DNA from: an uncultured Candidatus Saccharibacteria bacterium
GTDB taxonomy: Bacteria; Patescibacteriota; Minisyncoccia; UBA6257; UBA9933
NCBI GenBank assembly: GCA_964642155.1
Contig: CAZXNT010000004.1
Span: forward strand, 2,040 to 66,039
Reading direction: 5' to 3'
Length of the DNA: 64,000 nucleotides
The first letter of the stretch is position 1, and each line of letters begins with the position of its first letter. Shown piece after piece: positions 2,397 through 36,683 of this stretch. The notes beneath the pieces are model-generated. The model was not told where the DNA came from and ran no database searches. It saw nothing but the letters and a program-made list of their open reading frames with translations. The position numbers and the translations under genes were made by a program.

Positions 2397-3565
2397 GAAT
2401 TTTATTCACCGGCGGCGGAACCGGCGGACATATTTATCCGATTTTAGCGGTTGTTGAAGAACTGCAAGCCTTTGCCGCGAAAAGAAACATATATATTGAT
2501 TTGCAATATCTCGGCGCTCCCGGAAATTTTCGCAAACTTTTTGTTTCCAACGGCGTTTCGGTTTCAAAAATATTATCCGCCAAATTACGGCGTTATTTTG
2601 ATTTGCGTAATTTTTTGGATTTTATTCTTTTCCCCATAAGTATTATTCAGGCGTTTTGGAAAGTTTTTTGGATTATGCCGGATGTTTTATTTTCCAAAGG
2701 CGGTCCGGGTTCGTTACCGGTTGTTATTGCCTGCAAATTTTATCAAATTCCCGTGATTGTCCATGATTCTGATTCAACAATCGGTTTAGCTAATAAATTA
2801 GCATTGTCTTTCGCGAGCCGTATTGCCGTTTCTTTTATTTCAACTGCCGAGGAAATTGTCGGAATGCAAAAAAACGCAAAAAAAGCCGAATCTTTTCGCG
2901 CCAAAATAGCGTTTGTCGGCAATCCAATCAGGCCTTCTCTTTTTAAAGGTGATATTATAGACAAACAGATGGCTAAAAAAATGCTTGGTTTTGAGTCGGA
3001 AAAACCCTTGATGCTGATTTTGGGCGGTTCGCAAGGTTCATCTACTATAAACGATTTTATGTTGAATATCGCCGGAGAATTGGTGAAAGATTGGCAAATT
3101 TTTCATCAAACCGGCATTGATAATTTTAACAGCGTTAAAAGTGAACTGGCGGTTGTCTTGAAAGGATTCGGCGAAGAGGAAAAATCACGATATAAAATTA
3201 TTCCTTATTTTGAAAATAATTTAAAAGACGCTTATTCGGCCGCTGATGTGGTAATTTCACGCGCTGGCAGTCTTTCAATTTTTGAAATCGCCACTTTCGG
3301 AAAGCCGTCAATTCTTATCCCTTTAAGCGAGAAAGTTGTGGGGGTTCATCAAATTAGAAACGCTTATGAATATGCGAAAACCGGAGCCGCCGTTGTTATT
3401 GAAGAAGAAAATCTTAAACCCCATATTTTTATGAGTCAATTAAGTAAAATTATCGGCGATGTTGATTTATTGAAAAAAATGTTTGAAGCCGCCCGCGGTT
3501 TTTCAAAACCCGACGCCGCTTCAAAAATCGCTGAAGAAATAATTCGTTTAAGCAATATGGTATAA
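2393..3565 (+). CDS. murG: UDP-N-acetylglucosamine--N-acetylmuramyl-(pentapeptide) pyrophosphoryl-undecaprenol N-acetylglucosamine transferase
   Basis: N-terminal FTGGGTGGHIYPILAV glycine-rich MurG signature; 390 aa; directly follows ftsW. Confidence 0.85.
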   Translation: MRILFTGGGTGGHIYPILAVVEELQAFAAKRNIYIDLQYLGAPGNFRKLFVSNGVSVSKILSAKLRRYFDLRNFLDFILFPISIIQAFWKVFWIMPDVLFSKGGPGSLPVVIACKFYQIPVIVHDSDSTIGLANKLALSFASRIAVSFISTAEEIVGMQKNAKKAESFRAKIAFVGNPIRPSLFKGDIIDKQMAKKMLGFESEKPLMLILGGSQGSSTINDFMLNIAGELVKDWQIFHQTGIDNFNSVKSELAVVLKGFGEEEKSRYKIIPYFENNLKDAYSAADVVISRAGSLSIFEIATFGKPSILIPLSEKVVGVHQIRNAYEYAKTGAAVVIEEENLKPHIFMSQLSKIIGDVDLLKKMFEAARGFSKPDAASKIAEEIIRLSNMV

Positions 3566-6564: not shown

Positions 6565-7227
6565 TTATAAAAGAAAAATCACTATGCCTAAAATTATCAT
6601 TGCCAAACTGCTGATATAGCGCATTCCTTTCATATTTTCAGATTTCCATTTTTGGGTTTTTTCCAGAAGCGTTTTATTATTGGCGATTAAAAGTATGATT
6701 ATCAGTGGCAAAATGAAAACCAAATTGTAATAAATCAAATATCCGAGCCCCTTCCAAAAAGTCGCTTGGTCGTGCAAGAGGCCGAGAACCAGCAGATATG
6801 GGCCGCCGGTGCAAGGAAATTCACAAAGCCCGACAAATCCGCCGAGCAGGAAAGCCGTTGGCGCCGAACCTTTTTCCATAAGTTTCGCCATTGTTCTGTG
6901 TGAACCCTGAGGGATTTTCAGTTTAATCGGAAAATTCGGGAAAATCGCGCCGAGCAATTCAATAATTCCCCATATTATAAGAAGAGACGCGCCGACTTTT
7001 CCCATAAAATTAGGGATGTTGAAAATTTGCAAAGTTTGCAGAATTCCGAGGCCGATTAAAATATAAACAATAAAGATGCCGAAAATATAAAGCAGGCCGA
7101 TTTTCAAAATATTCAAACGGTCGCGGCCGAGAGTGAAAAGAAAGGCGATAGTCAGTATTAAAACGGAAAAAGCGCAGGGATTAACGCTGTCAACCAGAGC
7201 GGCGGTTGTGATAATTAGCAAAAGCAT
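6565..7227 (-). CDS. ccdA: Cytochrome c-type biogenesis/thiol-disulfide transporter CcdA (DsbD transmembrane domain family)
   Basis: 220 aa polytopic; conserved VDSVNPCA first-Cys motif and second Cys in CEFPCTGGPYL. Confidence 0.7.
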   Translation of the reverse strand: MLLLIITTAALVDSVNPCAFSVLILTIAFLFTLGRDRLNILKIGLLYIFGIFIVYILIGLGILQTLQIFNIPNFMGKVGASLLIIWGIIELLGAIFPNFPIKLKIPQGSHRTMAKLMEKGSAPTAFLLGGFVGLCEFPCTGGPYLLVLGLLHDQATFWKGLGYLIYYNLVFILPLIIILLIANNKTLLEKTQKWKSENMKGMRYISSLAMIILGIVIFLL

Positions 7228-7294
7228 AATTCTTAATTTTAATTGAGCGAAAACTTGAAGTCAAACGGATTTTTGTTTAGTATAAAAGCGGATT

Positions 7295-7365
7295 GGGCTT
7301 GTAGCTTAGTGGCAGAGCATCCGGTTTGCATCCGGAAGATAGGGGTTCGATTCCCCTCAAGTCCA
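7295..7365 (+). tRNA. tRNA-Ala (TGC)
   Basis: Manual fold: acceptor GGGCTTG/CAAGTCC with G3:U70 Ala identity pair, anticodon loop TTTGCAT. Confidence 0.8.
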
Positions 7366-7538
7366 AAGGAAAGGCGAGAGTTCGACCTGCCCCGTAATGT
7401 CCGCCAGAAGCGGACTATTTCGGGGTTCTCGCTTGGTCCAAAAGGTAGGGTGGGTGAGCGGTTTAAACCGCTGGTCTTGTTCCCGATTTGTATAAAATTT
7501 GTTAGAATTTTATCTACAAATCGCAATCCCGCTTAAAG
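7366..7538. other. Structured, relatively GC-rich spacer between tRNA-Ala and tRNA-Ser (nested hairpins; possible small RNA)
   Basis: gcgagag...ccccg-taatg-tccgc-cagaa-gcgga-ctattt-cgggg...ctctcgc nested stems; gagcggtttaaaccgctg hairpin; overlapping ORFs 7239..7526(-)/7243..7536(+) judged spurious. Confidence 0.3.
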
Positions 7539-7626
7539 CGGAAGGTTGGCAGAGCGGTCTAATGCGCCGCACTTGAAATGCGGTTGAGGAGAAATCCTCT
7601 CGGAGGTTCGAATCCTCCACCTTCCG
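7539..7626 (+). tRNA. tRNA-Ser (TGA)
   Basis: Manual fold: acceptor GGAAGGT/ACCTTCC, 3-bp D-stem, anticodon stem CCGCA/TGCGG loop CTTGAAA, long variable arm, T-arm GGAGG-TTCGAAT-CCTCC. Confidence 0.8.
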
Positions 7627-7629
7627 CTT

Positions 7630-7760
7630 TGTGCGGGAAAAAGCGTTATTGTGAGTTCTCCGCCTACGCGCCTCCTCCGCCGAAGCAACTTCGGCTGCGA
7701 AGGCCGGGCAAAGCTTCGGCGGATTGCTTTTGGTAGTAAAATCAAAGATTTTAACCAAAA
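7630..7760. ncRNA. GC-rich structured region downstream of tRNA-Ser (candidate small ncRNA; identity unknown)
   Basis: Perfect 9-bp stem ccgccgaag/cttcggcgg enclosing GNRA-like loops; GC far above local average; ORFs 7510..7758(-) and 7533..7745(-) judged spurious. Confidence 0.25.
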
Positions 7761-7886
7761 GGGAAGAATCTCACCCCTACCGCCAGCGTCAGTTAGAGAA
7801 ATTTAAACTTTTTTGGTATAATTAAATTGTAGTAAAAATCGCCAAGGCGTTGGGCGTTTTAATTGAGGATTTAATCAAATAAAACT

Positions 7887-8489
7887 ATGAAAGGAATTAT
7901 TTACATAATGACAACAGCCGTTTCTGGGTTGATAAAAATAGGACAAACTGGCACTGGTAATTATCAGGAACGAATGCGTAATCTTGAGGCAAATGGTTAT
8001 TATAATGTTTCCGGTCTGAAGAGATTTTTTGCGATTGAGCTTGAAGATTATAATGATAAAGAAAATCTTTTAAAGGAAATTTTTAACAAACATCGGGTTG
8101 GGGATAGTGAATTATTTGCCCTTGATTATGATTTAGTGCGACAACTTTTGTTATCATTCGAAGGCAAAGTGATATATCCCAAAGATGTAGATAAAGAAAA
8201 GGAATTTGACGAGGTTTCGAAAGCGAGAGAGCAAGGAGTACGGTTTAGTTTTTATAAAAAAGGAATTAAGAACGGAGAAGAAATTGTTTTTATAGCTGAT
8301 AAAGAAATCACTACGAAAGTAGTTGGCGAGCGTGAAGTGGAATATGGTGAACAAATTTGGAAACTTACACCATTAACGTACAAAATATATGAGCAAAAAG
8401 GAGGATTAAATGAGAGTGGCGCATACCAAGGGGCTGCTTATTGGCAATATAAAGGCAAACGACTAAGAGACTTGCCTGATATTAATTAA
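7887..8489 (+). CDS. T5orf172 (GIY-YIG-like) domain protein
   Basis: N-terminal GIIYIM...SGLIKIGQTG...ERMRNLE resembles the T5orf172/MUG113 GIY-YIG-like domain; first gene after the tRNA cluster. Confidence 0.5.
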   Translation: MKGIIYIMTTAVSGLIKIGQTGTGNYQERMRNLEANGYYNVSGLKRFFAIELEDYNDKENLLKEIFNKHRVGDSELFALDYDLVRQLLLSFEGKVIYPKDVDKEKEFDEVSKAREQGVRFSFYKKGIKNGEEIVFIADKEITTKVVGEREVEYGEQIWKLTPLTYKIYEQKGGLNESGAYQGAAYWQYKGKRLRDLPDIN

Positions 8490-8496
8490 ATAAAAT

Positions 8497-8977
8497 TATG
8501 GAACAATACTTAGAATTTGCAAAAAGTTTGGCAAAAGAAGCTGAAGAAATAGCCCTAAGGTATTTTAGTTTTGAAGTTGGAAATATTTGAAAAGAAGACA
8601 ATACGCCATTAACTCAAGCTGACACAGAAATAAAAGATTTGGTAATTAAGAGAATCAATGGAAAATACCCAGAACATAGTATTTATGGAGAAGAAAAAAG
8701 CGAGAGGAAAGAAAATTCAAAATATATTTGGGTTTGCGACCCAATAGATGGAACAATGGCTTTTTCTTGCGGTTTACCTATATTTGTTTTTTCTATAGCC
8801 TTAGTTGATCAATCAAATGGTCTACCTATTTTAGGATTAATAAATGATCCAGTAATGAAAAATCTGTATTGGGGTTATAAAGATGGTGGAGCATATAGAA
8901 ATGGTCAAAAAATATTTGTATCAAAAGATGCTACTCTTTCAAAAAAGGAGAAGATGGACTCACAAAACTACTTTTAG
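8497..8977 (+). pseudogene. Inositol monophosphatase family (SuhB-like) pseudogene: in-frame TGA after codon 29 and C-terminal truncation
   Basis: ATG at 8497 encodes MEQYLEFAKSLAKEAEEIALRYFSFEVGNI-stop-KEDNTPLTQADTEIKDLVIKR...WVCDPIDGT (IMPase metal-binding motif); ends about 120 aa short of a full IMPase. Confidence 0.6.
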
Positions 8978-9006
8978 ATAATATTATTTTTGGAATAGAA
9001 GATGAA

Positions 9007-9315
9007 TTGTTGTTTATATTTTTATACAGCTCACTAGAGGGAAAAAATAAAAATTTACTAAAAACAGATATGGGGGAATTTAAAAAAAGAGACTATATTT
9101 GGCCTTCTGAATCTAAATACCAGAATTATCCCAAAGAACTCAGTGATTTAGAGTATATTAGACATCAAATATACCATCCGAGAAGTAATAAAAATACTCA
9201 CGGAAAAATAGTATTGGAAAATGAGAAAAAACCTGTAGGTAAAAACTATTATACAGAAAAAGAACTAGCAGATGCTATAAAAAAAATGAGTGAGATATTT
9301 GGGGCTAGTAGTTGA
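9007..9315 (+). CDS. Hypothetical protein
   Basis: 102 aa ORF in accessory islet; no family recognised. Confidence 0.3.
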   Translation: MLFIFLYSSLEGKNKNLLKTDMGEFKKRDYIWPSESKYQNYPKELSDLEYIRHQIYHPRSNKNTHGKIVLENEKKPVGKNYYTEKELADAIKKMSEIFGASS

Positions 9316-9387
9316 GCATAGTAAATACGTTATAAAAACCACTTTATCAAAAACCGAAGTTAATAAAAAATTAGGAAAATAAATTTT

Positions 9388-9600
9388 ATGGAAGAAGAAA
9401 AAATTAAAAACATCAAAAAAACAATTATTAATACAATCGTATTTGCAGGATTAGCACACGGCGTGTTTAATGATTTAATTTATCCTGATCAATCAGACGA
9501 TTTTGGTGATTTTGGCGGGAATTATGTTATGAAAAATTCGGATAGTAGTGGCACAGCAGTAGCTTTTAATATAATTCCTTCAATTATAGATATAAATTAA
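9388..9600 (+). CDS. Hypothetical small protein
   Basis: 70 aa ORF; acidic C-terminal half. Confidence 0.25.
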   Translation: MEEEKIKNIKKTIINTIVFAGLAHGVFNDLIYPDQSDDFGDFGGNYVMKNSDSSGTAVAFNIIPSIIDIN

Positions 9601-9739
9601 ACTAACGAAAACGCGGCGCTAATTTAGGGGCTTATGCAAAAATCCGCTTTTGGCGGATTTTTGTTTGTTAATATGATAAAATAAATTTATGAATCCCGCT
9701 TTAATCCCGTCGGCCAACAAAAAAATCAGGCAAATAACT

Positions 9740-9769
9740 CATTGTACAATTCCATAGAATTGTACAATG
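9740..9769. promoter_or_regulatory. Perfect 13-4-13 palindrome cattgtacaattc-cata-gaattgtacaatg (candidate ArsR-family operator)
   Basis: Exact inverted repeat 25 bp upstream of the ArsR-family gene at 9795; same sequence recurs at 18820 and a variant at 10071. Confidence 0.55.
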
Positions 9770-9794
9770 ATAAATTATCCTATAATATTATTAT

Positions 9795-10061
9795 ATGAAA
9801 AGATGGACTGTAATTTTTAGAGCTTTGGCCAATATTAACCGGCTAAAAATAATTAAAATGCTGACCGGTGGCCACAAGATGAATGTCGGCGATATTGCGG
9901 AGGATTTGAATATTTCTTTTAAAGCCACTTCTAACCACCTTGCCATACTTAAAAATCTGGATGTTTTGGATGCGCAAGGCGTTGAGGGGCATGTTTTTTA
10001 TTTTATTAATCCTCAAATGCCCAAAGATTTCCAAAAAATAATTGAGATTACCCTAAAGTAA
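9795..10061 (+). CDS. ArsR/SmtB-family winged-helix transcriptional regulator
   Basis: 88 aa; ALANINRLKIIKML...VGDIAEDLNISFKATSNHLAILKNLDVL HTH. Confidence 0.7.
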   Translation: MKRWTVIFRALANINRLKIIKMLTGGHKMNVGDIAEDLNISFKATSNHLAILKNLDVLDAQGVEGHVFYFINPQMPKDFQKIIEITLK

Positions 10062-10070
10062 TTATATAGT

Positions 10071-10100
10071 CATTGAACAATTCCATAGAATTGTTCAATG
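10071..10100. promoter_or_regulatory. Variant palindrome cattgaacaattc-cata-gaattgttcaatg downstream of the arsR-like gene
   Basis: Same architecture as 9740..9769 with a compensated t-to-a change in each half-site. Confidence 0.5.
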
Positions 10101-10189
10101 GATAATCAATAAAAAAATAGGCGAGTAAATTTATGTCACATAATCTGCCTTTTATATTTTTTTATGATTTTTTATGATATAATATTTTT

Positions 10190-10384
10190 ATGAAGCGTTT
10201 ATATAAAAGTCGCGAGAATAAGGTCTTTTGCGGGGTGATTGGCGGGTTGGGGGAGTATTTCGGCGTTGATGCGGTGATTTTGCGGGTCGGGTATGTTTTA
10301 CTTTCCATCTTTACCGGCATCGTGCCCGGGCTTATAGCGTATTTTGTTATCTGTCTCGTGGTGCCGAAAAAATTAGAGAAATAG
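10190..10384 (+). CDS. PspC-domain membrane protein
   Basis: 64 aa; LYKSRENKVFCGVIGGLGEYFGVD...TM helix matches the PspC domain. Confidence 0.6.
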   Translation: MKRLYKSRENKVFCGVIGGLGEYFGVDAVILRVGYVLLSIFTGIVPGLIAYFVICLVVPKKLEK

Positions 10385-10435
10385 ATTTTAGATTTATTGT
10401 CGGTTGTTTTTCTATTATTCACCTGTTTGTCCATG

Positions 10436-10461
10436 CTCTAATTCGCGCGAATAAGCGAATA
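10436..10461. repeat. Copy 1 of repeated motif ctctaattcgcgcgaataagcgaata (core palindrome attcgcgcgaat)
   Basis: Shares 25+ bp with copies at 10811, 11119 and 18689; ORF 10438..10629(-) that covers it judged spurious. Confidence 0.5.
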
Positions 10462-10519
10462 AGGAAAATCCAGCAACGGCAAAATAAAAAGGTCGAAGAA
10501 ATGGTTAAGAAATAAATTT

Positions 10520-10789
10520 ATGGCAATAATCAAAAAGAAAATTTGGCCGGAATATTTTGAGGCCGTAGTTTCTGGCAGGAAGAAATTTGAGCTCCGCTTG
10601 AATGATTTTGAGATTAATGAAGGCGACACGCTTTTACTTGAAGAATATGATCCAATAAAGAAAGAATATACCGGCAGAAGCGTGGAAAAGAAAGTCGGTT
10701 ATGTTTTTAAATTCAAACCAACTGAACTTCCTTTTTACTCAAAAGAAGATATTGAAAAAAACGGTCTTCAAATAATTTCTCTGGAGTAA
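10520..10789 (+). CDS. DUF3850/ASCH-like small protein
   Basis: 89 aa; IWPEYFEAVVSGRKKFELRLNDFEINEGDTLLLEEY matches the DUF3850 pattern. Confidence 0.5.
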   Translation: MAIIKKKIWPEYFEAVVSGRKKFELRLNDFEINEGDTLLLEEYDPIKKEYTGRSVEKKVGYVFKFKPTELPFYSKEDIEKNGLQIISLE

Positions 10790-10810
10790 TAAAACATTTA
10801 AAGCGAGTTA

Positions 10811-10852
10811 TTCTCTATGCTCTAATTCGCGCGAATAAGCGAATAGATGAAA
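10811..10852. repeat. Copy 2 of repeated motif ttctctatgctctaattcgcgcgaataagcgaatagatgaaa, just upstream of a tataat box and the second arsR-like gene
   Basis: Exact 38-bp identity with copy 3; located 20-60 bp upstream of the 10872 start. Confidence 0.55.
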
Positions 10853-10871
10853 TTCTTGCTATAATTTATTT

Positions 10872-11132
10872 ATGCGTAAATTGGAGAAAATTTTAAAAGC
10901 ATTGGCTAATCGGCGGCGGTTGGCGATTTTGAAATATCTGAAAGAAAACAAAGAAGCGCCGGTAGGGGAAATTACCCACGAAATTGATTTGTCATTTAAA
11001 TCAACATCAAAACATCTTGGCGTTTTGTCGGCGGTGGATATTATTGAAAAAGACCAGCGAAGTTTGCAAATGTTTTATAGATTATCCGATAATCAAGAGT
11101 CGGCGGTTAAACACATTATTTCTATGCTCTAA
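10872..11132 (+). CDS. ArsR/SmtB-family transcriptional regulator (second copy)
   Basis: 86 aa; LKALANRRRLAILKYL...VGEITHEIDLSFKSTSKHLGVL HTH. Confidence 0.65.
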   Translation: MRKLEKILKALANRRRLAILKYLKENKEAPVGEITHEIDLSFKSTSKHLGVLSAVDIIEKDQRSLQMFYRLSDNQESAVKHIISML

Positions 11133-11182
11133 TTCGCGCGAATAAGCGAATAGATGAAAATGACTAATTACTCAACAAAAAA
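11119..11182. repeat. Copy 3 of repeated motif (covers the last 4 codons of arsR-2 through the HAD gene start)
   Basis: tttctatgctctaattcgcgcgaataagcgaatagatgaaaatgactaattactcaacaaaaaa; about 60 bp near-identical to copy 4 at 18689. Confidence 0.55.
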
Positions 11183-11896
11183 ATGAGAACAAAACTGCTT
11201 ACTAAAACATATAAAAGGAAAGTAGCTGTATTTGATATAGACGGAACATTTTTTCGTTCAAGCCTTTTGATTGAACTTGTAGAAGTATTCGTGCAAAAAG
11301 GTATTTTTCCCAGTAAAACAAGTAAAATTTATGAACCAGCATATAAAAAATGGCGTGATAGAAAAGAATCTTACGAAAACTATATTACTTCTGTAATTAA
11401 AGCATTTGATAAAAATATAGATGGTGTTGATTGCGATAAATTCGTAGAAATTGCCGATAAAGTTGCAAGCGTTAATCAAAATCACATTTATCGTTACACG
11501 CGAGATCTCATAAAAGAGTTAAAAGATAAGGATTATTTTATTTTAGCCATATCAAATTCGCCTTGGGGAGTTTTAGAAAAGTTTTGTAAGAAAAATGGCT
11601 TTGATAAAGTTTATGGAAGATTTTATAAAGTTGATGACAACGGAAAATTAACTAATACTGTTGAGCACGAAAAACTAATTTCGGATAAATCTAAAATCTT
11701 GATGCGCGCTATAGAAAAAGAAAACCTGACATTAAAAGGATCTATCGGAGTTGGAGATACTGAATCAGACATTCCGTTTTTAAAAATAGTTGAGAAGCCA
11801 ATTTGTTTTAATCCGAACAAAAAACTCTACGATTACGCTAAAAGCAAGAAATGGAAAATAGTTGTTGAAAGAAAAGATATGATTTATCATATTTAA
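11183..11896 (+). CDS. HAD-superfamily hydrolase, subfamily IB (phosphoserine phosphatase-like)
   Basis: 237 aa; VAVFDIDGTFF motif I and GVGDTESDIPFL motif IV. Confidence 0.65.
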   Translation: MRTKLLTKTYKRKVAVFDIDGTFFRSSLLIELVEVFVQKGIFPSKTSKIYEPAYKKWRDRKESYENYITSVIKAFDKNIDGVDCDKFVEIADKVASVNQNHIYRYTRDLIKELKDKDYFILAISNSPWGVLEKFCKKNGFDKVYGRFYKVDDNGKLTNTVEHEKLISDKSKILMRAIEKENLTLKGSIGVGDTESDIPFLKIVEKPICFNPNKKLYDYAKSKKWKIVVERKDMIYHI

Positions 11897-11922
11897 TACA
11901 GTAAATTAAAAAAGATAAAAAT

Positions 11923-13386
11923 CTACACCTTATCTAAATCTAAAGTCATATCAATCTTAATTTGCTTCACAAATTCTGGCACATGGCTTACAAGAATCAT
12001 TGCGCCGGTATATTTATCTATAGCAGAAGCAATAACAGGGATATGCCTAAAATTAATATGGTTAGTAGGTTCATCAAGAATTAATAATCCCGGTTTTTGA
12101 AGTACGAGACGAGTAAAAGCAACTAATCCTTTTAATCCTTCTGATAAATTTCCAACTTTTGTTTTTAATAATTGCTCGTTAATTAAAAATCCAGACGCAA
12201 TTGAACGAAGTTTTTGCTGAGTCATATCAGAATTATCCTTTATCACTGCTATTAGTGATTCATACACGGTATCTTCAAAATTAAGTGTAGAAAAATCTTG
12301 TCTGTAATAACCAATTTCTATACCAGTAGTAATTAGCTCTCCCTTTAAATCTCCGTGCGCTAATTTTTCAAGCAAAGTGGTTTTTCCAATTCCATTCGCC
12401 CCTGTTAAAAGTAAGCGCTCACCCTTTTTTAAAATAACATTAACTTTTTTATTAACTGATTTATGATTTTTTATGATAGAAACGGATTTTAATTCCAATA
12501 CTTGACCAACTATATCTTCTTGGCACGGAATAAAGAAACTGCGAATTGTTTTATCTTCTTGTCGTTCATCTACTATTTCTTCTTCTAATTCTTCAATTTT
12601 CGCGTTCATTTTTTTTGCTATATTACGCATCTTCCCTCCTTTTTGAGCAAAGAAATTTGCTTGTTCTTTTCTATGTATAATATCTTTTTCAAGCCGTACA
12701 TTTTTCATTCTTTCTCTTTCTAAACGCACCTTAATTTCTTCAACAACATCAAAATAGTTTCCGACATATTGCTCTACTTTATGAGTAAATATATCCAAAT
12801 AAAGAACGCCTTGCGTAAAAGCATTAAGAAAATCAGCATCATGAGAAATAACCACACAAGTTTTTTTATAATCCAAAAGAAATTGCGTTAAATGTTCAAT
12901 GCCAGCTTTATCTAAATTATTAGTCGGTTCGTCTAATAGTAATAAATCAGGGTCTTGAATAAGGGCAGATGCAAGAAGAAGGCGCGCTTGTTGGCCTCCG
13001 GAAAATGACTTAACAATCCTTTCATAAGGGGCATTTAAATTTACAATCTCGCATACAGCATCAATTCGCGGGTCAATGTTGTATATTTTTTCCGTAAAAC
13101 ATTTCTCAAAAAATTCTCGTACAGTTAAATCCATTTGATCGCGGGGGATTACTTGCCGAGCAGTGGCGACTGTAATTTTATCATCAGTATTAATTGCTCC
13201 AGATTCAGGATGTAATATTTTTGTAATAAGTTGAAAAATAGTGCTTTTCCCGGAACCATTTTGACCCATTAAAGTTATTTTTGCTCCGCGACGAATTGAA
13301 AAATCCGCCTCTTGTAAAATAGGTTTATTATGCCCATACCCAAACGACGCCTTATTAAATCTAATTATAACTTCATTTTGCGCCAT
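11923..13386 (-). CDS. ABC-F family ATPase (tandem ABC domains, no transmembrane domain)
   Basis: 487 aa; Walker A GQNGSGKST and GANGIGKTT, signatures LSGGQQARL and LSEGLKGLV, helical linker between the two domains. Confidence 0.8.
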   Translation of the reverse strand: MAQNEVIIRFNKASFGYGHNKPILQEADFSIRRGAKITLMGQNGSGKSTIFQLITKILHPESGAINTDDKITVATARQVIPRDQMDLTVREFFEKCFTEKIYNIDPRIDAVCEIVNLNAPYERIVKSFSGGQQARLLLASALIQDPDLLLLDEPTNNLDKAGIEHLTQFLLDYKKTCVVISHDADFLNAFTQGVLYLDIFTHKVEQYVGNYFDVVEEIKVRLERERMKNVRLEKDIIHRKEQANFFAQKGGKMRNIAKKMNAKIEELEEEIVDERQEDKTIRSFFIPCQEDIVGQVLELKSVSIIKNHKSVNKKVNVILKKGERLLLTGANGIGKTTLLEKLAHGDLKGELITTGIEIGYYRQDFSTLNFEDTVYESLIAVIKDNSDMTQQKLRSIASGFLINEQLLKTKVGNLSEGLKGLVAFTRLVLQKPGLLILDEPTNHINFRHIPVIASAIDKYTGAMILVSHVPEFVKQIKIDMTLDLDKV

Positions 13387-13446
13387 AACATTATAGGATA
13401 ATCTAATTTTAGTAATTTTTCCAGTATTTATAAAGAAATTTATCTT

Positions 13447-14709
13447 TTGTATACTTATATTATTATGAAAAATAATATTTGGGACGTTATTGTTATTGGC
13501 GGTGGACCGGCAGGAATGATTTCAGCTGGAAGATCGGCAGAATTAGGCAGTTCTGTTTTATTACTTGAAAAAAATCCAACACTTGGAAAAAAACTCCTTA
13601 TAACCGGAGGTGGAAGATGTAATCTTACGAATAATAGACCGGATATTCGTAATATGGTCACGCAATATAATGGAAGCGATCAATTTCTTATGTCCGCATT
13701 CTCACAGTTTGATGTTGTAAAAACATTAAGTTTTTTTAATTCTAGGGGAATGAAGATAAAAGAAGAAGCGGGCGGGAGAATTTTTCCAACCTCAGATAAA
13801 TCACAGTCAGTGTTAGATGTACTAGTAAAATATATGAGTAAGGGTGGAGTAGAAATAAAAACAAAAGCAATAGTTTCTGATTTTTCTATTGATAAAAAAA
13901 CTGGATGCGTAGTAATTCAACTTAAAACAGGAACTACTTTAATGGCGAAGTCATGTATTATCGCCACAGGAGGAACATCACATCCAGAAACAGGCTCAAC
14001 GGGAGAAGGTTTTAAATGGCTTAAAAAAATAGGACATACAATTGTAAAAAATAATTTTGCTCTTGTTCCTATTGCGATTAAAGATAAATGGGTAAAAAAT
14101 TTAACCGGAATAACACTAAACGATATTAAACTCACTGTATTGTTAGATGGAAAAAAACAAGATTCTAAAAAAGGAAGGGTACTGTTTACGCATTTTGGAA
14201 TTAGCGGGCCAATGGTATTAAATATGAGTAAAAATATTGGTGAATTATTACCTCGTGGAGAAGTAATTATTATACTGGATTTATTCCCAAAATTTGACCT
14301 CGGCGCTCTTAAAAAAACTTTGCAAAATATTCTTATAACAGAAAGTAATAAAAAATTAAAAAATACTTTAAGCGCAATTATTCCGTCAGCTATTGTTCCA
14401 ATAATACTTACAATGGCTGGAGTAGATGGTGAAACGGCAAATCACAGCATACGGCATGAAGAAAGAAAAAAACTTGTTAACTGTATGAAAGGAATCCCAA
14501 TGCGCGTAGAAGGATTATTGGGCGCGCATAAAGCAATTGTGTCTTCAGGCGGCGTTAAGCTTGAAGAAGTAAATTTTAAAACAATGCAGTCGCGCGTTAC
14601 ACCGCAAATATATCTTGTTGGAGATGTACTTAATATCAATCGTCCATCTGGAGGATACAGTCTGCAATTATGCTGGACAACGGGGTTTGTGGCAGGAAGT
14701 AATGCTTAA
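13447..14709 (+). CDS. FAD-dependent oxidoreductase, HI0933/aminoacetone-oxidase-like family
   Basis: 420 aa; WDVIVIGGGPAGMISA Rossmann motif and GGGRCNLTN signature. Confidence 0.7.
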   Translation: MYTYIIMKNNIWDVIVIGGGPAGMISAGRSAELGSSVLLLEKNPTLGKKLLITGGGRCNLTNNRPDIRNMVTQYNGSDQFLMSAFSQFDVVKTLSFFNSRGMKIKEEAGGRIFPTSDKSQSVLDVLVKYMSKGGVEIKTKAIVSDFSIDKKTGCVVIQLKTGTTLMAKSCIIATGGTSHPETGSTGEGFKWLKKIGHTIVKNNFALVPIAIKDKWVKNLTGITLNDIKLTVLLDGKKQDSKKGRVLFTHFGISGPMVLNMSKNIGELLPRGEVIIILDLFPKFDLGALKKTLQNILITESNKKLKNTLSAIIPSAIVPIILTMAGVDGETANHSIRHEERKKLVNCMKGIPMRVEGLLGAHKAIVSSGGVKLEEVNFKTMQSRVTPQIYLVGDVLNINRPSGGYSLQLCWTTGFVAGSNA

Positions 14710-18688: not shown

Positions 18689-18750
18689 TTGTCTCATCTC
18701 TAATTCGCGCGAATAGGCGAATAGATGAAAATGACTAACTACTCAACAAA
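18689..18750. repeat. Copy 4 of repeated motif, including a degraded arsR-2 3'-end-like stretch
   Basis: ttgtctcatctctaattcgcgcgaataggcgaatagatgaaaatgactaactactcaacaaa; followed by an imperfect hairpin and the 18814 palindrome. Confidence 0.55.
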
Positions 18751-18813
18751 CCCCAGTAGTAGAACGCAAGGCGTTCACTACGGGGCGAGAAAATTAGGCG
18801 ATAAATTAGGTTA

Positions 18814-18855
18814 TAAACTCATTGTACAATTCCATAGAATTGTACAATGAGTTTA
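18814..18855. promoter_or_regulatory. Extended 42-bp palindrome aaactcattgtacaattccatagaattgtacaatgagttt (third copy of the ArsR-type operator)
   Basis: Identical core to 9740..9769; lies about 180 bp upstream of the 19037-20978 operon. Confidence 0.55.
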
Positions 18856-19036
18856 TCCTGTCTGTTAAATTACACACCGCTTGCTATGGGGTAGGTAAAC
18901 TACGAGGCAGGCAAATTTATGAGAAAGTTAAATCAGGTAAAATTTGAGAAAATCGTGGGAGAGGGAATAAAAGCAATCCCGGAGTGGTAAAAGTTATCCA
19001 CAGGGATATTCGGCAATTTATGGTATAATTTAATTA

Positions 19037-19312
19037 ATGAGTAAAAACTTAAAAATTATAATAATTTTAGCAATAATCATTATTTTATCTCTAACCGGAT
19101 TTTTCGTTTGGAAGAAATTTTATCAAAAATCGCAAACCGAAAAAACAATAGAAAAAGCGGGCGAGGCCGCGGAAATTATCACCGAGAGCGCCACTCAGGG
19201 GGTTTTGCCTTTAATAAATTCCACGGCTAATCCTTATGAAAATGTTTCGGAAACCAATCCGGTTGAGAAGGCCAATCCCTTTAAAAATATAAAAACTAAC
19301 CCATTTGAGTAA
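19037..19312 (+). CDS. Small secreted/anchored hypothetical protein
   Basis: 91 aa; N-terminal hydrophobic helix; overlaps the next gene by 8 nt. Confidence 0.35.
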   Translation: MSKNLKIIIILAIIIILSLTGFFVWKKFYQKSQTEKTIEKAGEAAEIITESATQGVLPLINSTANPYENVSETNPVEKANPFKNIKTNPFE

Positions 19313-20978
19313 AAATAATATGAAAAATAAAAAACAATCTTTATTTTTATCGCTGGTGATTTTAATTTTTGGATTATCGGTGTCCGGCAGCATAATTTTT
19401 GCGCAAAATGATTTATCGGATAATAATATCCAATATCCGATAGTCGAGCTTGGCAGTTGTGAAAATAAAAATGATTGTAAAAAATATTGCGATAATTCGC
19501 AGAATTTTGACGCGTGCATCACTTTTGCCGAAAAAAATAATTTAATGCCGAAAGGAGAAATTGAAATCGCCAAAAAATTTATGGCAGGTGGCGTTAAAGG
19601 TCCGGGCGGGTGCGGGAATAAAAATGAATGCGAAACGTATTGCGACAATATTGATAAAATAAACGAATGTGTTTCTTTTGCCGAGAAAAATAATATTTTA
19701 CCGCCGAAAGAATTAGAAGAAGCCAAAAAAATAAAAGCGGCCATAGAAAAGGGAATTAAACCGCCGGCGTGCGGAAGCAAAAAGTCCTGCGATGTTTATT
19801 GCAGCCAATCCGAACATATGGAGGAATGTATTAGCTTTGCCGAAGTCGCCGGATTCATTCCGCCGAAAGAATTAGATGAAGCCAAAAAAGTTTTAGCAGC
19901 CGTTAAAAAAGGCATTAAGCCGCCGGCTTGCCGTGGAAAAGAGGAATGCGATATTTATTGTTCCGAAGAAAGTCATTTTGACGAGTGTATAGTTTTTGCC
20001 GAAGCTGCCGGTTTTATGCGGCCTGAAGAAGTGGAAATGGCGCGTAAAACAAAAGGCAAGGGTCCGGGTGGATGCAGAGGCAGAGAGGAATGCGACGCTT
20101 TTTGTCAAAGTGAATCAAATATGGAAATTTGCGCCAACTTTGCTTTGGAACACGGCTTAATGAAGCCGGAAGAAGTGAAAATGATGAGAAAGACCGGCGG
20201 TAAAAGTCCGGGTAATTGTAGAGGCAAAGAAAAATGCGAAAATTTTTGTAATAATTCAGATAATCAGGAAACTTGTTTTAATTTCGCCAAAGAACATAAT
20301 TTGATTCCTCAGGGAGAAATGGAAAAAATGAAGGAAGGAATGGGACAAATGAAAGAAAATTTTCGGATGGCGTCGCCGGAAATAAGCGAGTGTCTTAAAT
20401 CAAACGTTGGCGAAGAAGTTTTAAATAAAATACAAAGCGGGACATTTGCGCCACCGCGCGAACTTGGCGAAAAAATGAAAAATTGTTTTGAGAATTTCGC
20501 GCCTCAACGTCTTGATATTCCTCAACAACGTCTCGAGATGCCTTCTTTTGAGGGCGAGGGACAAAATTTTGAGAAAAGATTTGAAGGAACAATAGAAGAA
20601 TTAAAGAGAATGCCTCCTGCGGAAATGTTGTCACCGAATGGATTTATACCGTCTGATTATCGCCCAGAAGGCGCAATAGAGGGCAGAATGCCTCTTAATG
20701 AGTATATGAAACCGCCCGAAGGGGGAGGGTATATTCCGCAAATGTTTAAGCAGAACGAAGAAACGCGTCAATTTCAGCAATATCCATTGCAATATCAGCA
20801 AATGATGCCGCCATCTCAAGAAATACGGCAAATGATTCCGCCGCAAGAAATACAACAGATGCCGTTTCAACAAGTTCCGCAGAATATGCAGCAAACTCCG
20901 CCACTTCCTTCATCAATGAATAATCAAAAGCCGTTTGCTCAAATTCTTTATTTCTTTACCCGCTTATTAGGAAGATAA
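19305..20978 (+). CDS. Secreted cysteine-rich repeat protein (7 x 4-Cys modules, Q/P-rich C-terminus)
   Basis: 557 aa; signal peptide; seven about 40-aa repeats C-x5-6-C-x3-C-x7-9-C-x2-FA...P (28 Cys); low-complexity Q/P/M tail. Confidence 0.6.
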   Translation: MSKNNMKNKKQSLFLSLVILIFGLSVSGSIIFAQNDLSDNNIQYPIVELGSCENKNDCKKYCDNSQNFDACITFAEKNNLMPKGEIEIAKKFMAGGVKGPGGCGNKNECETYCDNIDKINECVSFAEKNNILPPKELEEAKKIKAAIEKGIKPPACGSKKSCDVYCSQSEHMEECISFAEVAGFIPPKELDEAKKVLAAVKKGIKPPACRGKEECDIYCSEESHFDECIVFAEAAGFMRPEEVEMARKTKGKGPGGCRGREECDAFCQSESNMEICANFALEHGLMKPEEVKMMRKTGGKSPGNCRGKEKCENFCNNSDNQETCFNFAKEHNLIPQGEMEKMKEGMGQMKENFRMASPEISECLKSNVGEEVLNKIQSGTFAPPRELGEKMKNCFENFAPQRLDIPQQRLEMPSFEGEGQNFEKRFEGTIEELKRMPPAEMLSPNGFIPSDYRPEGAIEGRMPLNEYMKPPEGGGYIPQMFKQNEETRQFQQYPLQYQQMMPPSQEIRQMIPPQEIQQMPFQQVPQNMQQTPPLPSSMNNQKPFAQILYFFTRLLGR

Positions 20979-21820: not shown

Positions 21821-22507
21821 ATGGATATTAAACAAACAGTTGATAATAATTGGCCACGCGCTTTGCGCGTTACTGCCACAGTTTTCGTTCTTTTTATTTT
21901 ACAGCATTATTTCCGCCGCTTCGGACAGCCGATTGAAAAAATATATTTCACCGTTCTTTTCGCTTCCATTGCTCTTACGGGTTTAACAATGATTACCACA
22001 AGTTATCTTATAGGTCCGTTGGCGCGGCTTTGGCCCGCGAAATGGGAAAGATATCGCGATATGCGGAAACAATTCGGTTTGATAGGGTTAGCGTTTGTCG
22101 TATTCCATATATTTATGGCGCTTGTTGTTTTAACGCCGGTTTATTTCCAAAAATTTTTTTTAGAAACCGGCAGATTATCAAATTTGGGGCAAATTTCCGT
22201 ATTAACGGGAATTTTGGGATTTGTTATTTTTATGATTGTGGCGATAACTTCGCTTCCGTCAGTGGCGGGAAAAATGACGGAACGCGGTTGGTTTTTTATT
22301 CAGCGTTTAGGATTAATCGCGATAATATTTTCTGTTCTTCATTTTATTGTATTCAAATGGCGAGGTTGGTTTAATTGGGATAATTGGAATAATAATATTC
22401 CTCCCGGCACGTTTGTTGTGACGGTTTTTATTATATTGGTGTTTTTAATCCGCGCTGTCGCGTATATTTCAGAACGAAAGAGAAGAGAAGAGGATAGTAT
22501 GGGATAA
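21821..22507 (+). CDS. Ferric-reductase-like transmembrane-domain protein (MsrQ/YedZ-like)
   Basis: 228 aa, about 6 TM helices with conserved His in VFHIFMAL and VLHFIVF. Confidence 0.35.
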   Translation: MDIKQTVDNNWPRALRVTATVFVLFILQHYFRRFGQPIEKIYFTVLFASIALTGLTMITTSYLIGPLARLWPAKWERYRDMRKQFGLIGLAFVVFHIFMALVVLTPVYFQKFFLETGRLSNLGQISVLTGILGFVIFMIVAITSLPSVAGKMTERGWFFIQRLGLIAIIFSVLHFIVFKWRGWFNWDNWNNNIPPGTFVVTVFIILVFLIRAVAYISERKRREEDSMG

Positions 22508-35066: not shown

Positions 35067-35759
35067 TTGTTTATGCAAATACTTTCAGTTAAAAATCTTA
35101 GTATTGAAATTAACAGAATTAAAATTCTTGAAGATATTAATTTTGAAATCAATAAGGGAGACGTGCTGGCGATTATCGGACCGAATGGAGCCGGTAAAAC
35201 AATACTTTTAAGAGCATTGCTTGATTTGGGGGATTATAGCGGTGAAATTAAGTGGGTTCCGGAAATTAAAGTCGGTTATGTTCCGCAAAGAATGGATATT
35301 GAAACCGATATTCCGCTTACGGTAAGGGAATTTTTTTATTTGCGCGATGCGGAAATAAACGAAGTAAAAATCAAAGAAGCGCTTGCTTTTGTCCATCTTG
35401 ACGAAAAAATTTTAAATTCCGGATTTGGCGAAATTTCCGTTGGTCAAAGACAGCGCGTTTTGGTTGCTTGGGCGGTTGTTGCTAAACCCGATGTTTTGCT
35501 TTTTGACGAACCAACAGCGGATGTGGATATCGTCGGCCAGAAATCAATTTACGAGATGCTTCATAAATTGCAACACGATTTGAATCTCACCGTAATTTTA
35601 GTTTCGCACGACCTTAATATTGTTTATAAATACGCCGATAAAGTCATCTGTCTTAATAAGAAAAAAATTTGCGAAGGCACGCCGAATGAAATATTAAATA
35701 CCGAAAGACTGCTTGAAATTTACGGAGGGGAAAAAGCCTTTTATCATCATCAGCACTAA
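35067..35759 (+). CDS. znuC: Metal (Zn/Mn) ABC transporter ATP-binding protein
   Basis: 230 aa; GPNGAGKT Walker A, LLFDEPT Walker B, ZnuC-like length. Confidence 0.7.
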   Translation: MFMQILSVKNLSIEINRIKILEDINFEINKGDVLAIIGPNGAGKTILLRALLDLGDYSGEIKWVPEIKVGYVPQRMDIETDIPLTVREFFYLRDAEINEVKIKEALAFVHLDEKILNSGFGEISVGQRQRVLVAWAVVAKPDVLLFDEPTADVDIVGQKSIYEMLHKLQHDLNLTVILVSHDLNIVYKYADKVICLNKKKICEGTPNEILNTERLLEIYGGEKAFYHHQH

Positions 35760-35762
35760 ATC

Positions 35763-35908
35763 CCTCACCCTTTAAAGATTTAAAATAATAAAATTTGAAG
35801 AGCGAGAGATTTATGTAAAAAATAAAATCTATAAAATAACATAATAACTTTAATAAATTATTTGTAAATTTCTTATGAAATTTACAAATAGATCTTTAAA
35901 GGGTGAGG
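35763..35908. repeat. Intergenic element bounded by perfect 18-bp inverted repeats (ccctcaccctttaaagat / atctttaaagggtgaggg) with internal 11-bp palindrome
   Basis: Lies between znuC stop and znuB start; inner ttgtaaatttc-ttatg-aaatttacaa palindrome; AT-rich core. Confidence 0.5.
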
Positions 35909-35909
35909 G

Positions 35910-36683
35910 ATGGATATAAATTTATTACAACCTATTTTAACAGCCGCTTTTGTCGCCGCCGCCGCGAGTTTAGTCGGTTCTTTCGCGATTTTAAAAAGAA
36001 TGGCTTTAGTCGGCGACGCTATGAGTCATGTCGCTTTGCCGGGGATAGCCATTGCCTTGCTTCTTAATCTTAATCCGTTTTTAGGAGCTATTGTTTTTTT
36101 AGCCGTGGCGATTGTCGGAATTTGGTTTATTCAATATCGCAGTAATTTGTCAATTGAGACGACTGTGGGCGTGTTTTTTACCGCTAGTTTGGCATTGGGA
36201 GCGTTAATCGCGCCGGAACACGAGCTTTTAGAGGCCTTATTGGGCAATATCACTGATTTAAGCTGGCAGGAATCTTTAGTCTCAATTATTTTATCCATTG
36301 TTTTAATTGCCGTTATTTTACGGTTAAGAAAAAAATTAGCGCTTAGCATGGTTTCATCGGAAATGGCTCATTCTATCGGCATAAAAAATAAGAGACTGGA
36401 ATTTATTTATTTGATGATTTTTGCCTTGGTGGTTTCTTTGGGCATACGTTTTGTCGGCGCTCTTTTAATGGGTTCGCTGGTTATTATCCCGGCTGCTTCG
36501 GCGAAAAATATCGCTAAGAGTTTAAATTATTTTATGGGATTAAGCGTGATTTTCGGAGTTTTGGCGGCTGCGGCGGGAATTTATTTTTCATCAATCTATA
36601 ATCTTACACCCGGTCCCATTTTTATAATTATCAGCGTCGCTATTTTTATTGTTTCTTTGGTAATAAGAGGCAGTCGTAGATAA
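35910..36683 (+). CDS. znuB: Metal ABC transporter permease (ABC-3 family)
   Basis: 257 aa; 8 TM helices; ABC-3 permease pattern. Confidence 0.7.
   Translation: MDINLLQPILTAAFVAAAASLVGSFAILKRMALVGDAMSHVALPGIAIALLLNLNPFLGAIVFLAVAIVGIWFIQYRSNLSIETTVGVFFTASLALGALIAPEHELLEALLGNITDLSWQESLVSIILSIVLIAVILRLRKKLALSMVSSEMAHSIGIKNKRLEFIYLMIFALVVSLGIRFVGALLMGSLVIIPAASAKNIAKSLNYFMGLSVIFGVLAAAAGIYFSSIYNLTPGPIFIIISVAIFIVSLVIRGSRR

Follow-up and report, generated by a model that had tools for sequence, protein, structure and literature searches.

A Patescibacteria family of cysteine-rich helical-repeat proteins, each encoded beside a small membrane partner, and its possible role as a surface stalk

INTRODUCTION

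What does a cysteine-rich gene in an uncultured Candidatus Saccharibacteria bacterium encode, which organisms share it, and what controls it? The gene ends at position 20978 of a 64,000-nt stretch of DNA, hereafter the window, which covers positions 2,040 to 66,039 of contig CAZXNT010000004.1 (assembly GCA_964642155.1). Patescibacteria (the candidate phyla radiation, CPR) account for much of the diversity of bacteria and live attached to other cells, and most of their surface proteins are without known function. A first-pass annotation, made from the letters of the window, had proposed a secreted, cysteine-rich, modular protein under ArsR-type operator control and had favored extracytoplasmic metal binding as its role. 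Here, we report that the gene belongs to a large family found almost entirely in Patescibacteria, that its product is a tandem array of four-cysteine modules with a predicted helical fold, and that it is encoded next to a small membrane protein with which it forms an obligate gene pair. We propose that the array may serve as a surface stalk or tether, and we weigh this proposal against its rivals.

RESULTS

The gene and its family

The gene is real, and a public protein (P0001) is 100% identical to its 552-aa product. The open reading frame (ORF) first put forward, 19305 to 20978 on the forward strand, is present in the window, where TTG 19305 is the start of the longest ORF. However, the true start is probably ATG 19320, because P0001 begins there and the close homologues all share the N-terminus MKNKKQSLF.... 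This ATG stands 7 nt past the stop codon of a small upstream gene. Residue numbers below refer to the 552-aa protein unless the 557-aa numbering is stated.

A homologue search against 5.8 billion proteins returned at least 1,538 significant relatives. Those with names are all “hypothetical” apart from one evidently spurious label, and those with taxon names come almost entirely from Patescibacteria, including Wolfe-, Yanofsky-, Jorgensen-, Nealson-, Staskawicz-, and Magasanikbacteria. A profile of a single module (A2, 58 columns), run on 1.84 billion representatives of clusters at 50% identity, matched 1,853 representative clusters at E ≤1e-3 and 1,008 at E ≤1e-30, with 6–13 modules each. A scan of one genome per species placed the family in at least 423 species genomes, almost all of them labeled Patescibacteria. 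Literature searches on cysteine-rich, disulfide or surface proteins of Patescibacteria/Parcubacteria and on the DnaA box in CPR yielded no description of the family.

To survey the gene neighborhood, ORFs were called and clustered in 80 related loci plus the window (81 loci). By clustering, a partner gene lay directly upstream on the same strand in 67 of the 81, at a median gap of −10 nt. When the 14 apparent absences were rechecked, 11 proved to have the partner, 2 had no upstream DNA, and 1 had no partner within 500 nt, so that the gene pair is present in at least 78 of the 79 evaluable loci. The partner, of about 90 aa, combines an N-terminal transmembrane helix with a conserved tail that carries 3–5 NP[FLY] motifs (NPF/NPL) and nearly always ends in ...TNPF(E/K); a Pfam scan found no family for it. 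No further neighbor was common to more than 8 of the 81 loci, and the downstream DUF5676 and ferric-reductase-like genes are kept in close relatives only. Three loci that bear the pair are labeled otherwise than as Patescibacteria (L008, Gammaproteobacteria; L022, Methylomirabilis; L062, Aenigmatarchaeota). These are probably mis-binned or mislabeled Patescibacteria contigs.

Anatomy of the cysteine-rich protein

The protein is indeed built of tandem cysteine modules, although not in the form first described. A regular-expression count gives six modules rather than seven, and the pattern that they share is an invariant C-x5-C-x3-C-x8-C-x2-FA, without the x5-6 and x7-9 ranges that had been allowed. 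Their period is 48–53 aa and not about 40 aa, and the cysteines number 26 instead of 28, with 24 in the modules and 2 in a helical domain that follows the array. This domain lacks the module pattern and is what had been taken for the seventh repeat. Elsewhere in the window, none of the six frames contains the pattern. Because only the region of modules 3 and 4 is still recognizably duplicated at the DNA level (73% matches, period 159 nt), we take the array to be old.

Conservation across the family is strong. All four cysteines are retained in 2,006 of 2,040 module instances from 265 relatives, and most of the exceptions are truncated alignments. Of 861 motif instances, 742 have a cysteine spacing of 5-3-8, and most of the remainder have 5-3-6. 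Conservation is also strong for Tyr/Phe before Cys3, Phe at Cys4+3, Ala/Gly at Cys4+4, and Gly at Cys4+8. The modules are not interchangeable copies, since each position in the array keeps a consensus of its own from species to species. In the post-array domain, C358 is invariant and C389 is kept in at least 90% of the family alignment.

A signal peptide had been proposed, and this reading agrees with what we see: a basic MKNKKQ, a hydrophobic stretch, and IFA|Q, with the N-terminal layout and the ...AQ pattern kept in the family alignment (A1). As read from the sequence, it has neither a twin-arginine motif nor a lipobox cysteine. The Q/P/M-rich tail was likewise borne out (residues 401–541: Q 16%, P 15%, E 11%, M 8.5%). 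Its disordered stretch is about 140 aa, with low-confidence segments at residues 402–418 and 435–552 of the structure model described below, and the family-wide composition of this region is P 25% and Q 14.5%. It is a candidate wall-spanning spacer.

The chain closes on a 15-aa helix (mean hydrophobicity 0.24, hydrophobic moment 0.61), and a comparable hydrophobic tail is found in 95 of 120 relatives. The C-terminus, ...PPLPSSMNNQKPFAQILYFFTRLLGR, has no LPXTG-type motif and its helix is amphipathic. The same 95 relatives share a layout of “PPPxS(S/F),” 5–8 residues, and a ~15-aa amphipathic or hydrophobic helix with a final R or K. This layout resembles C-terminal sorting signals, and the recurrent PPPxS ahead of the helix matches no known sorting motif.

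Predicted fold and domain searches

An AlphaFold2 model based on 120 homologues was all-helical, with three helices per module. Its predicted local distance difference test score (pLDDT) exceeded 90 over residues ~35–395 and fell below 50 for residues 1–25, and its predicted template modeling score (pTM) was 0.60. The tail was disordered up to the short C-terminal helix. A single module modeled alone took the same fold (pLDDT 84; helices 9–17, 19–32, and 37–51), in which helix 1 holds Cys2 and Cys3, helix 2 holds Cys4, and Cys1 sits in the loop before helix 1.

The earlier impression that no named domain applies held up under hidden Markov model, structure-prediction, and Foldseek checks. Scanning Pfam and NCBIfam with the protein, with its partner, and with long relatives gave only sub-threshold or compositional matches, apart from the lectin and Kazal-like matches of some relatives. 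Nothing fell below E=0.8 in a search of Protein Data Bank (PDB) sequences with full-length and single-module profiles. Foldseek returned nothing below E=0.1 for the whole model or one module against the PDB, or for the whole model against viral structures. Its best non-significant neighbors were generic helical repeats and hairpins (TPR/PPR solenoids, E >1, TM-scores <0.2). Two candidate families were set aside. The defensin-like PF25052 (AtDEF-like) reached 18.5 bits against a cut-off of 25, over the signal peptide and module 1. The ADAM10 cysteine-rich domain PF21299 matched the relatives P0006 and P0008 at 28.8–30.2 bits (precomputed) with no individually significant stretch, and it did not match the window protein.

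Some relatives carry additional domains. Three proteins of 920–1,060 aa (P0198, P0281 of locus L084, and P0312) have a Laminin_G_3/ConA-like lectin domain after the array (E ~1e-25), together with an extra N-terminal domain (FxLKKDPSGLFTLT...). One lectin-bearing relative still has an NPF partner, which overlaps its start. Kazal-like matches of 23–30 bits, just over the Pfam cut-offs, occur in P0200 and P0307, each over a cysteine-rich stretch of only ~20–30 residues. The relative P0186 has 1,555 aa and 140 cysteines.

A DnaA box at the promoter

Directly ahead of the partner gene stands an extended −10 element, and the same arrangement recurs in L004, L085, L013, and other loci. Because this element lies only 7 nt before the ATG, the sequence suggests that the operon transcript is leaderless or nearly so. 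TATAAT or TGnTATAAT stands 6–8 nt before an ATG, with no Shine-Dalgarno sequence, at four places in the window (9781–9797, 10174–10192, 10858–10874, and 19021–19039), a pattern that suggests leaderless transcripts in this organism.

Unexpectedly, the promoter also carries a perfect DnaA-box consensus, and the 9-mer TTATCCACA recurs near the promoter in many relatives. Within the 400 nt upstream of the partner gene (200–600 nt upstream of the cysteine-rich gene; loci L004–L083), perfect boxes were found in 19 of 79 loci against 0.42 expected (~45-fold, Poisson p ~3e-25). With at most one mismatch, 46 of the 79 loci had a box, giving 54 matches against 8.1 expected. The distance from box to TATAAT clusters at 21–23 and 30–33 nt, one helical turn apart. 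These patterns suggest DnaA-linked control of an envelope operon.

ArsR-family elements upstream of the operon

The first-pass annotation had instead placed the gene under ArsR-type operators, and the palindromes that it had in mind are there. Two elements, palA (ACTCATTGTACAATTCCATAGAATTGTACAATGA) and palB, have copies upstream of the operon as well as at the genes of two ArsR-family regulators, and within the window, palA and palB copies are restricted to these intergenic regions. Regulator 1 has orthologues of 70–92% identity in many groups of Patescibacteria. At orthologue promoters, the core ACAATTC-yATrG-GAATTGT is found again, which makes palA credible as the operator of regulator 1. 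Sites of the palA type were also seen in L004 (2388–2420), L087 (~2910–2940), and L089 (~2940–2972 and 3267–3300). The copy nearest the operon, copy C, would fold as RNA at −28.9 kcal/mol (z = −8.65), and an Rfam search of the 368-nt upstream region gave only spurious miRNA-like matches on the palindrome. The palB element is a 33-nt intergenic sequence (CTCTAATTCGCGCGAATARGCGAATAGATGAAA) with four copies, two of them listed in Table 1 and two at 10436–10468 and 11127–11159. Every copy lies just past a stop codon, and the ATTCGCGCGAAT core also occurs in an unrelated intergenic region of L085. Many public contigs that carry regulator 1 are very short, and the Logan contigs L001 and L002 begin inside palA, which looks as if assemblies break at this repeat.

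The palindrome is credible as an operator, but its control of the cysteine-rich operon was not supported, as the site is both distant from the promoter and not conserved. Copy C lies 172 nt upstream of the operon's −10 box and does not overlap the promoter; at regulator 1's own gene, palA abuts the promoter. The sequence that follows the palA and palB copies near the operon looks like decayed arsR-gene promoters. Among the 80 related loci, a palA-like element near the operon was found only in L004 (a variant, ~55 nt upstream of the −10 box). In the equally close L085/L086 (78% identity), the 93-nt upstream region has a terminator, GTTATCCACAG, and TGGTATAAT, with no palA. The palA- and palB-like sequences of L085 lie in unrelated intergenic regions, a distribution that dispersed repeats would show. 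Co-occurrence with ArsR regulators, suggested earlier as a check, was not found: none of the 80 related loci has an ArsR-family gene closer than 6 kb to the cysteine-rich gene. The nearest HTH_5 genes in the window, at 9795 and 10872, are 8–9 kb upstream of the operon. By this comparison of loci, the conserved promoter feature of the operon is the putative DnaA box and not an ArsR-type operator.

The step from these operators to a metal role failed, because the regulators lack the known metal sites. Neither regulator contains cysteine, only 7 of 120 orthologues of regulator 1 have any, and the C-terminal helix of regulator 1 is not conserved among them. The sites known from ArsR/SmtB sensors (the helix 3 cysteine motif and Asp/His/Glu of the C-terminal helix) were not seen in the regulators. 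As judged from these sequences, the link to ArsR is confined to this lineage and carries no information on metals.

Table 1. Positions in the window of the operon, its parts, and the associated promoter and operator elements
Feature	Position	Strand	Details
Gene for exported Cys-rich helical-repeat protein	19320..20978	+	552 aa; 100% identical public protein P0001
Sec-type signal peptide MKNKKQSLFLSLVILIFGLSVSGSIIFA	19320..19403	+	Probable cleavage before QND; read from sequence
Six tandem modules, 48–53 aa each	19443..20354	+	C-x5-C-x3-C-x8-C-x2-FA, by regular expression; three predicted helices per module
Module boundaries	19443-19595, 19596-19754, 19755-19913, 19914-20057, 20058-20201, 20202-20354	+	By regular expression
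Post-array helical domain, two conserved Cys	20355..20504	+	C363 and C394 (557-aa numbering); helices 353–363, 365–372, 380–392, high pLDDT
Q/P/E/M-rich low-complexity region, predicted disordered	20505..20927	+	By composition; pLDDT mostly <50 beyond residue ~400
C-terminal amphipathic helix KPFAQILYFFTRLLGR	20928..20975	+	PPLPSS just before; helix 540–551 in AlphaFold2 model
Partner gene, 91-aa single-pass membrane protein	19037..19312	+	NP[YFLV] motifs in tail, end ...KANPFKNIKTNPFE; stop 7 nt before ATG 19320
Extended −10 element TGGTATAAT	19021..19029	+	7 nt before partner ATG; TATAAT at 19024-19029
Perfect DnaA-box consensus TTATCCACA	18994..19002	+	21 nt upstream of TATAAT
palA copy C	18813..18856		Perfect inverted repeat, 20-nt arms, 4-nt loop; 34-nt core (18817-18850) identical to arsR operator
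palB copy near operon	18698..18730	+	CTCTAATTCGCGCGAATAGGCGAATAGATGAAA, contains palindrome ATTCGCGCGAAT
palA copy A and ArsR-family gene 1	9737-9770; gene 9795..10061	+	10 nt upstream of TATAAT; 88 aa, no Cys; HTH_5 E=6.5e-10
palA variant B and 64-aa PspC-domain gene	10068-10101; gene 10190..10384	+	Symmetric GTAC to GAAC/GTTC change; PspC E=1.7e-20
palB copy and ArsR-family gene 2	10820-10852; gene 10872..11132	+	Just upstream of TGCTATAAT promoter; 86 aa, no Cys

Other features of the window

A low-G+C region at ~7200–14000 (0.315–0.33 vs ~0.38 elsewhere) is flanked by tRNA genes (7295–7626) and could be an acquired island. It holds a T5orf172/GIY-YIG-like gene (7887–8489), the two ArsR-family genes, the PspC-domain gene, a DUF3850/ASCH gene, and a HAD hydrolase gene. 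An inositol-monophosphatase fragment at 8639–8977 matches only positions 53–158 of a 271-position profile. Downstream of the cysteine-rich gene, a ferric-reductase/MsrQ-like heme membrane protein is encoded at 21821–22507 and also in L085 (12202–12885), in close relatives and not family-wide. The tail of the cysteine-rich protein is Met-rich, and an MsrP-like partner of the MsrQ-like gene was not seen. ABC ATPase and ABC-3 permease genes of the Zn/Mn-uptake type (35067–36683) lie 14 kb downstream and are not linked to the operon.

DISCUSSION

A proposed surface stalk and its rivals

We are on solid ground in describing a new domain family with an obligate partner. On what it does, the reading that we favor, a Patescibacteria-specific surface stalk or tether made of a cysteine-stapled helical array, seems to us an even call, and we favor it because of the lectin-domain fusions and because cysteines beyond the modules come in pairs. 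The two genes would form a Patescibacteria-specific operon, and the large product would be exported by Sec and lose its signal peptide. It would then fold into an elongated, all-helical array of six three-helix modules, each locked by its four cysteines, most likely as two disulfides, with the two-cysteine helical domain as a cap. A Pro/Gln-rich disordered spacer of ~140 residues would follow, and then the short C-terminal amphipathic helix. The array would act as a rigid surface stalk or scaffold while the spacer crosses the wall zone, and the C-terminal helix, the small single-pass partner, or both would anchor the complex at the membrane. The partner's outward tail would display its turn motifs (NPF/NPL, 3–5 per tail), which could dock onto the repeated modules. 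Transcription would run from the extended −10 promoter with the DnaA box at about −38, and in this genome, the two ArsR-family operator copies further upstream may add strain-specific control.

Several observations weigh against a stalk of this kind. A membrane-spanning anchor would need a longer and less polar C-terminal helix, and no LPXTG-type motif is present to take its place. Partners of longer arrays do not carry more NPx motifs (Spearman rho −0.27), leaving docking of one motif per module unsupported, and lysines on both sides of the partner's transmembrane segment make its membrane orientation ambiguous. Four invariant cysteines per module would fit a metal site equally well. Moreover, extracellular disulfides are less to be expected in anoxic water, the habitat of many Patescibacteria.

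Still, we consider it rather probable that the module cysteines form disulfides. Cysteines outside the modules come as 0, 2, 4, 6... per protein (the total is even in 252 of 265 family members), the post-array domain keeps a conserved lone pair, and the signal is of the Sec type. In addition, an MdbA-like membrane (extracytoplasmic) thiol-disulfide oxidoreductase has been reported as enriched in CPR bacteria (PMC6744442). No thiol-disulfide oxidoreductase was found among 10 further ORFs of the window that were scanned. From the modeled helix positions, C2–C4 and C1–C3 pairing would be feasible; degenerate modules gave an uninformative pattern, as cysteines are almost never lost. The alternative favored by the first-pass annotation is that the four cysteines of each module bind a single metal ion or a small metal cluster (Zn, Fe, or Cu(I), the last as in Cys-lined helical copper-storage proteins), giving six sites per chain for extracytoplasmic buffering, storage, or capture. 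Its appeal is structural, since each module has a CX3C pair on helix 1, a single cysteine on helix 2, and another in the loop before helix 1, a geometry that could bring all four to one site, and a His stands four residues before Cys4 in about half of the modules. That position is not conserved as a ligand, however (N 51%, H 46%), and the extra cysteines are paired, including a lone pair that is unable to form a four-cysteine site. The ArsR-family operator copy upstream of the operon and the Zn/Mn-type ABC transporter elsewhere in the window would also suit a metal role, but the regulator has no cysteine and no conserved C-terminal helix, and ArsR linkage is absent from the 80 related loci. 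A Sec-type signal without a twin-arginine motif argues against the export of a cofactor-loaded fold, the lectin-domain fusions suggest a scaffold, and neither metallothioneins nor copper-storage proteins were matched in sequence or fold by the Pfam, NCBIfam, PDB-sequence, and Foldseek searches. With this balance, we think metal binding unlikely. We find it very improbable that the protein is a polyprotein precursor, cut at its KGPGG/KPPA linkers into six disulfide-rich peptides of ~50 aa that resemble defensins or bacteriocins. A signal peptide followed by repeated small cysteine-rich units would be expected of such a precursor, and the weak, sub-threshold PF25052 match points the same way. 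By contrast, each module position keeps its own consensus in different species, AlphaFold2 confidently packs the modules into one body (a pTM of 0.60 despite a chain that is ~30% disordered), and a precursor would not be expected to have the conserved tail, the C-terminal helix, or the lectin fusions.

A further alternative concerns regulation only and is compatible with a stalk. It places the operon in the regulon of the cysteine-free repressor encoded at 9795..10061, together with the PspC-domain gene, as a strain-specific envelope-stress protein switched by an envelope or other non-metal signal. The identical 34-nt palindrome at the regulator's promoter and upstream of the operon, the symmetric variant before the PspC-domain gene, and the operator core kept at orthologous regulator genes all speak for such a regulon, as do the palA variant ~55 nt upstream of the L004 −10 box and the confinement of palA/palB in the window to these intergenic regions. 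Yet the operon's palA site is 172 nt from its −10 box, is followed, like the palB copy, by decayed-looking arsR-type promoters, and is missing in L085/L086 and 78 other loci. Its 20-bp hairpin could instead be a terminator or stabilizer of the upstream GH57 gene, and the palA/palB-like sequences in unrelated L085 intergenic regions behave like dispersed repeats. We therefore see this regulon as somewhat unlikely.

Implications

The stalk reading can be extended to an undescribed, Patescibacteria-specific envelope complex in which a cysteine-locked rod is docked to the membrane through the partner's NPF-type motifs, and/or “PPPxS + amphipathic helix + basic end” is a new C-terminal sorting signal, with expression tied to DnaA. 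We regard this extended version as a long shot. If true, the complex would be a bacterial counterpart of eukaryotic NPF-peptide recognition, and, in organisms that have very few regulators, the DnaA tie would couple the cell cycle to an envelope or attachment structure. The module array in any case yields a clean new domain definition, and with ~1,850 clusters, the same small partner, and often a DnaA box, the family is well defined and tractable as a candidate envelope or attachment structure specific to the lineage.

Comparison with known systems

The locus shares with ArsR/SmtB metal-resistance operons an upstream inverted repeat identical to the operator of an HTH_5 regulator. In such operons, the regulator is adjacent or divergent, the operator overlaps the promoter, and metal ligands are present. 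Here, the regulator is 9 kb away, the operator lies off the promoter, there are no known metal sites, and the linkage is not conserved. The operon's promoter recalls DnaA-regulated promoters, of which dnaA autoregulation and the sda-type promoters of Bacillus are examples: a perfect TTATCCACA stands at a fixed, helically phased distance (21–23 or 30–33 nt) from the −10 box. Unlike those promoters, the putative DnaA site here is a single box rather than a cluster, and its target would be an envelope-protein operon.

In its fold, the protein resembles TPR/PPR alpha-solenoids as an elongated stack of helical repeats. However, those repeats have two helices and no cysteines and belong to cytoplasmic proteins, and the Foldseek matches to them were non-significant. 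CHCH (twin CX3C-CX9C) proteins and alpha-hairpinins are also small cysteine-dependent helical units, in which a CX3C helix faces a second helix. Where CHCH domains have two helices with equally spaced CXnC motifs, each module here has one CX3C within C-x5-C-x3-C-x8-C, a single cysteine on helix 2, and another in a loop. The modules further differ in having three helices, in their tandem arrangement in an exported bacterial protein, and in lacking a Pfam match.

The closest systems in architecture are surface proteins of the protein A type. Staphylococcus aureus protein A has a signal peptide, five ~58-aa three-helix domains, a Pro-rich wall-spanning region, and a C-terminal sorting signal. The order of parts is the same here: a Sec signal, tandem ~50-aa three-helix modules, a Pro-rich spacer, and a short hydrophobic C-terminus with a basic end. 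By contrast, the LPXTG motif, the ~20-aa hydrophobic segment, and the positive tail that complete the anchor of LPXTG proteins are replaced here by an amphipathic helix that does not span the membrane, and there is no sequence or fold match between the two. The present proteins are set apart as well by four invariant cysteines in each module, by an obligate small membrane partner, and by a distribution almost confined to Patescibacteria.

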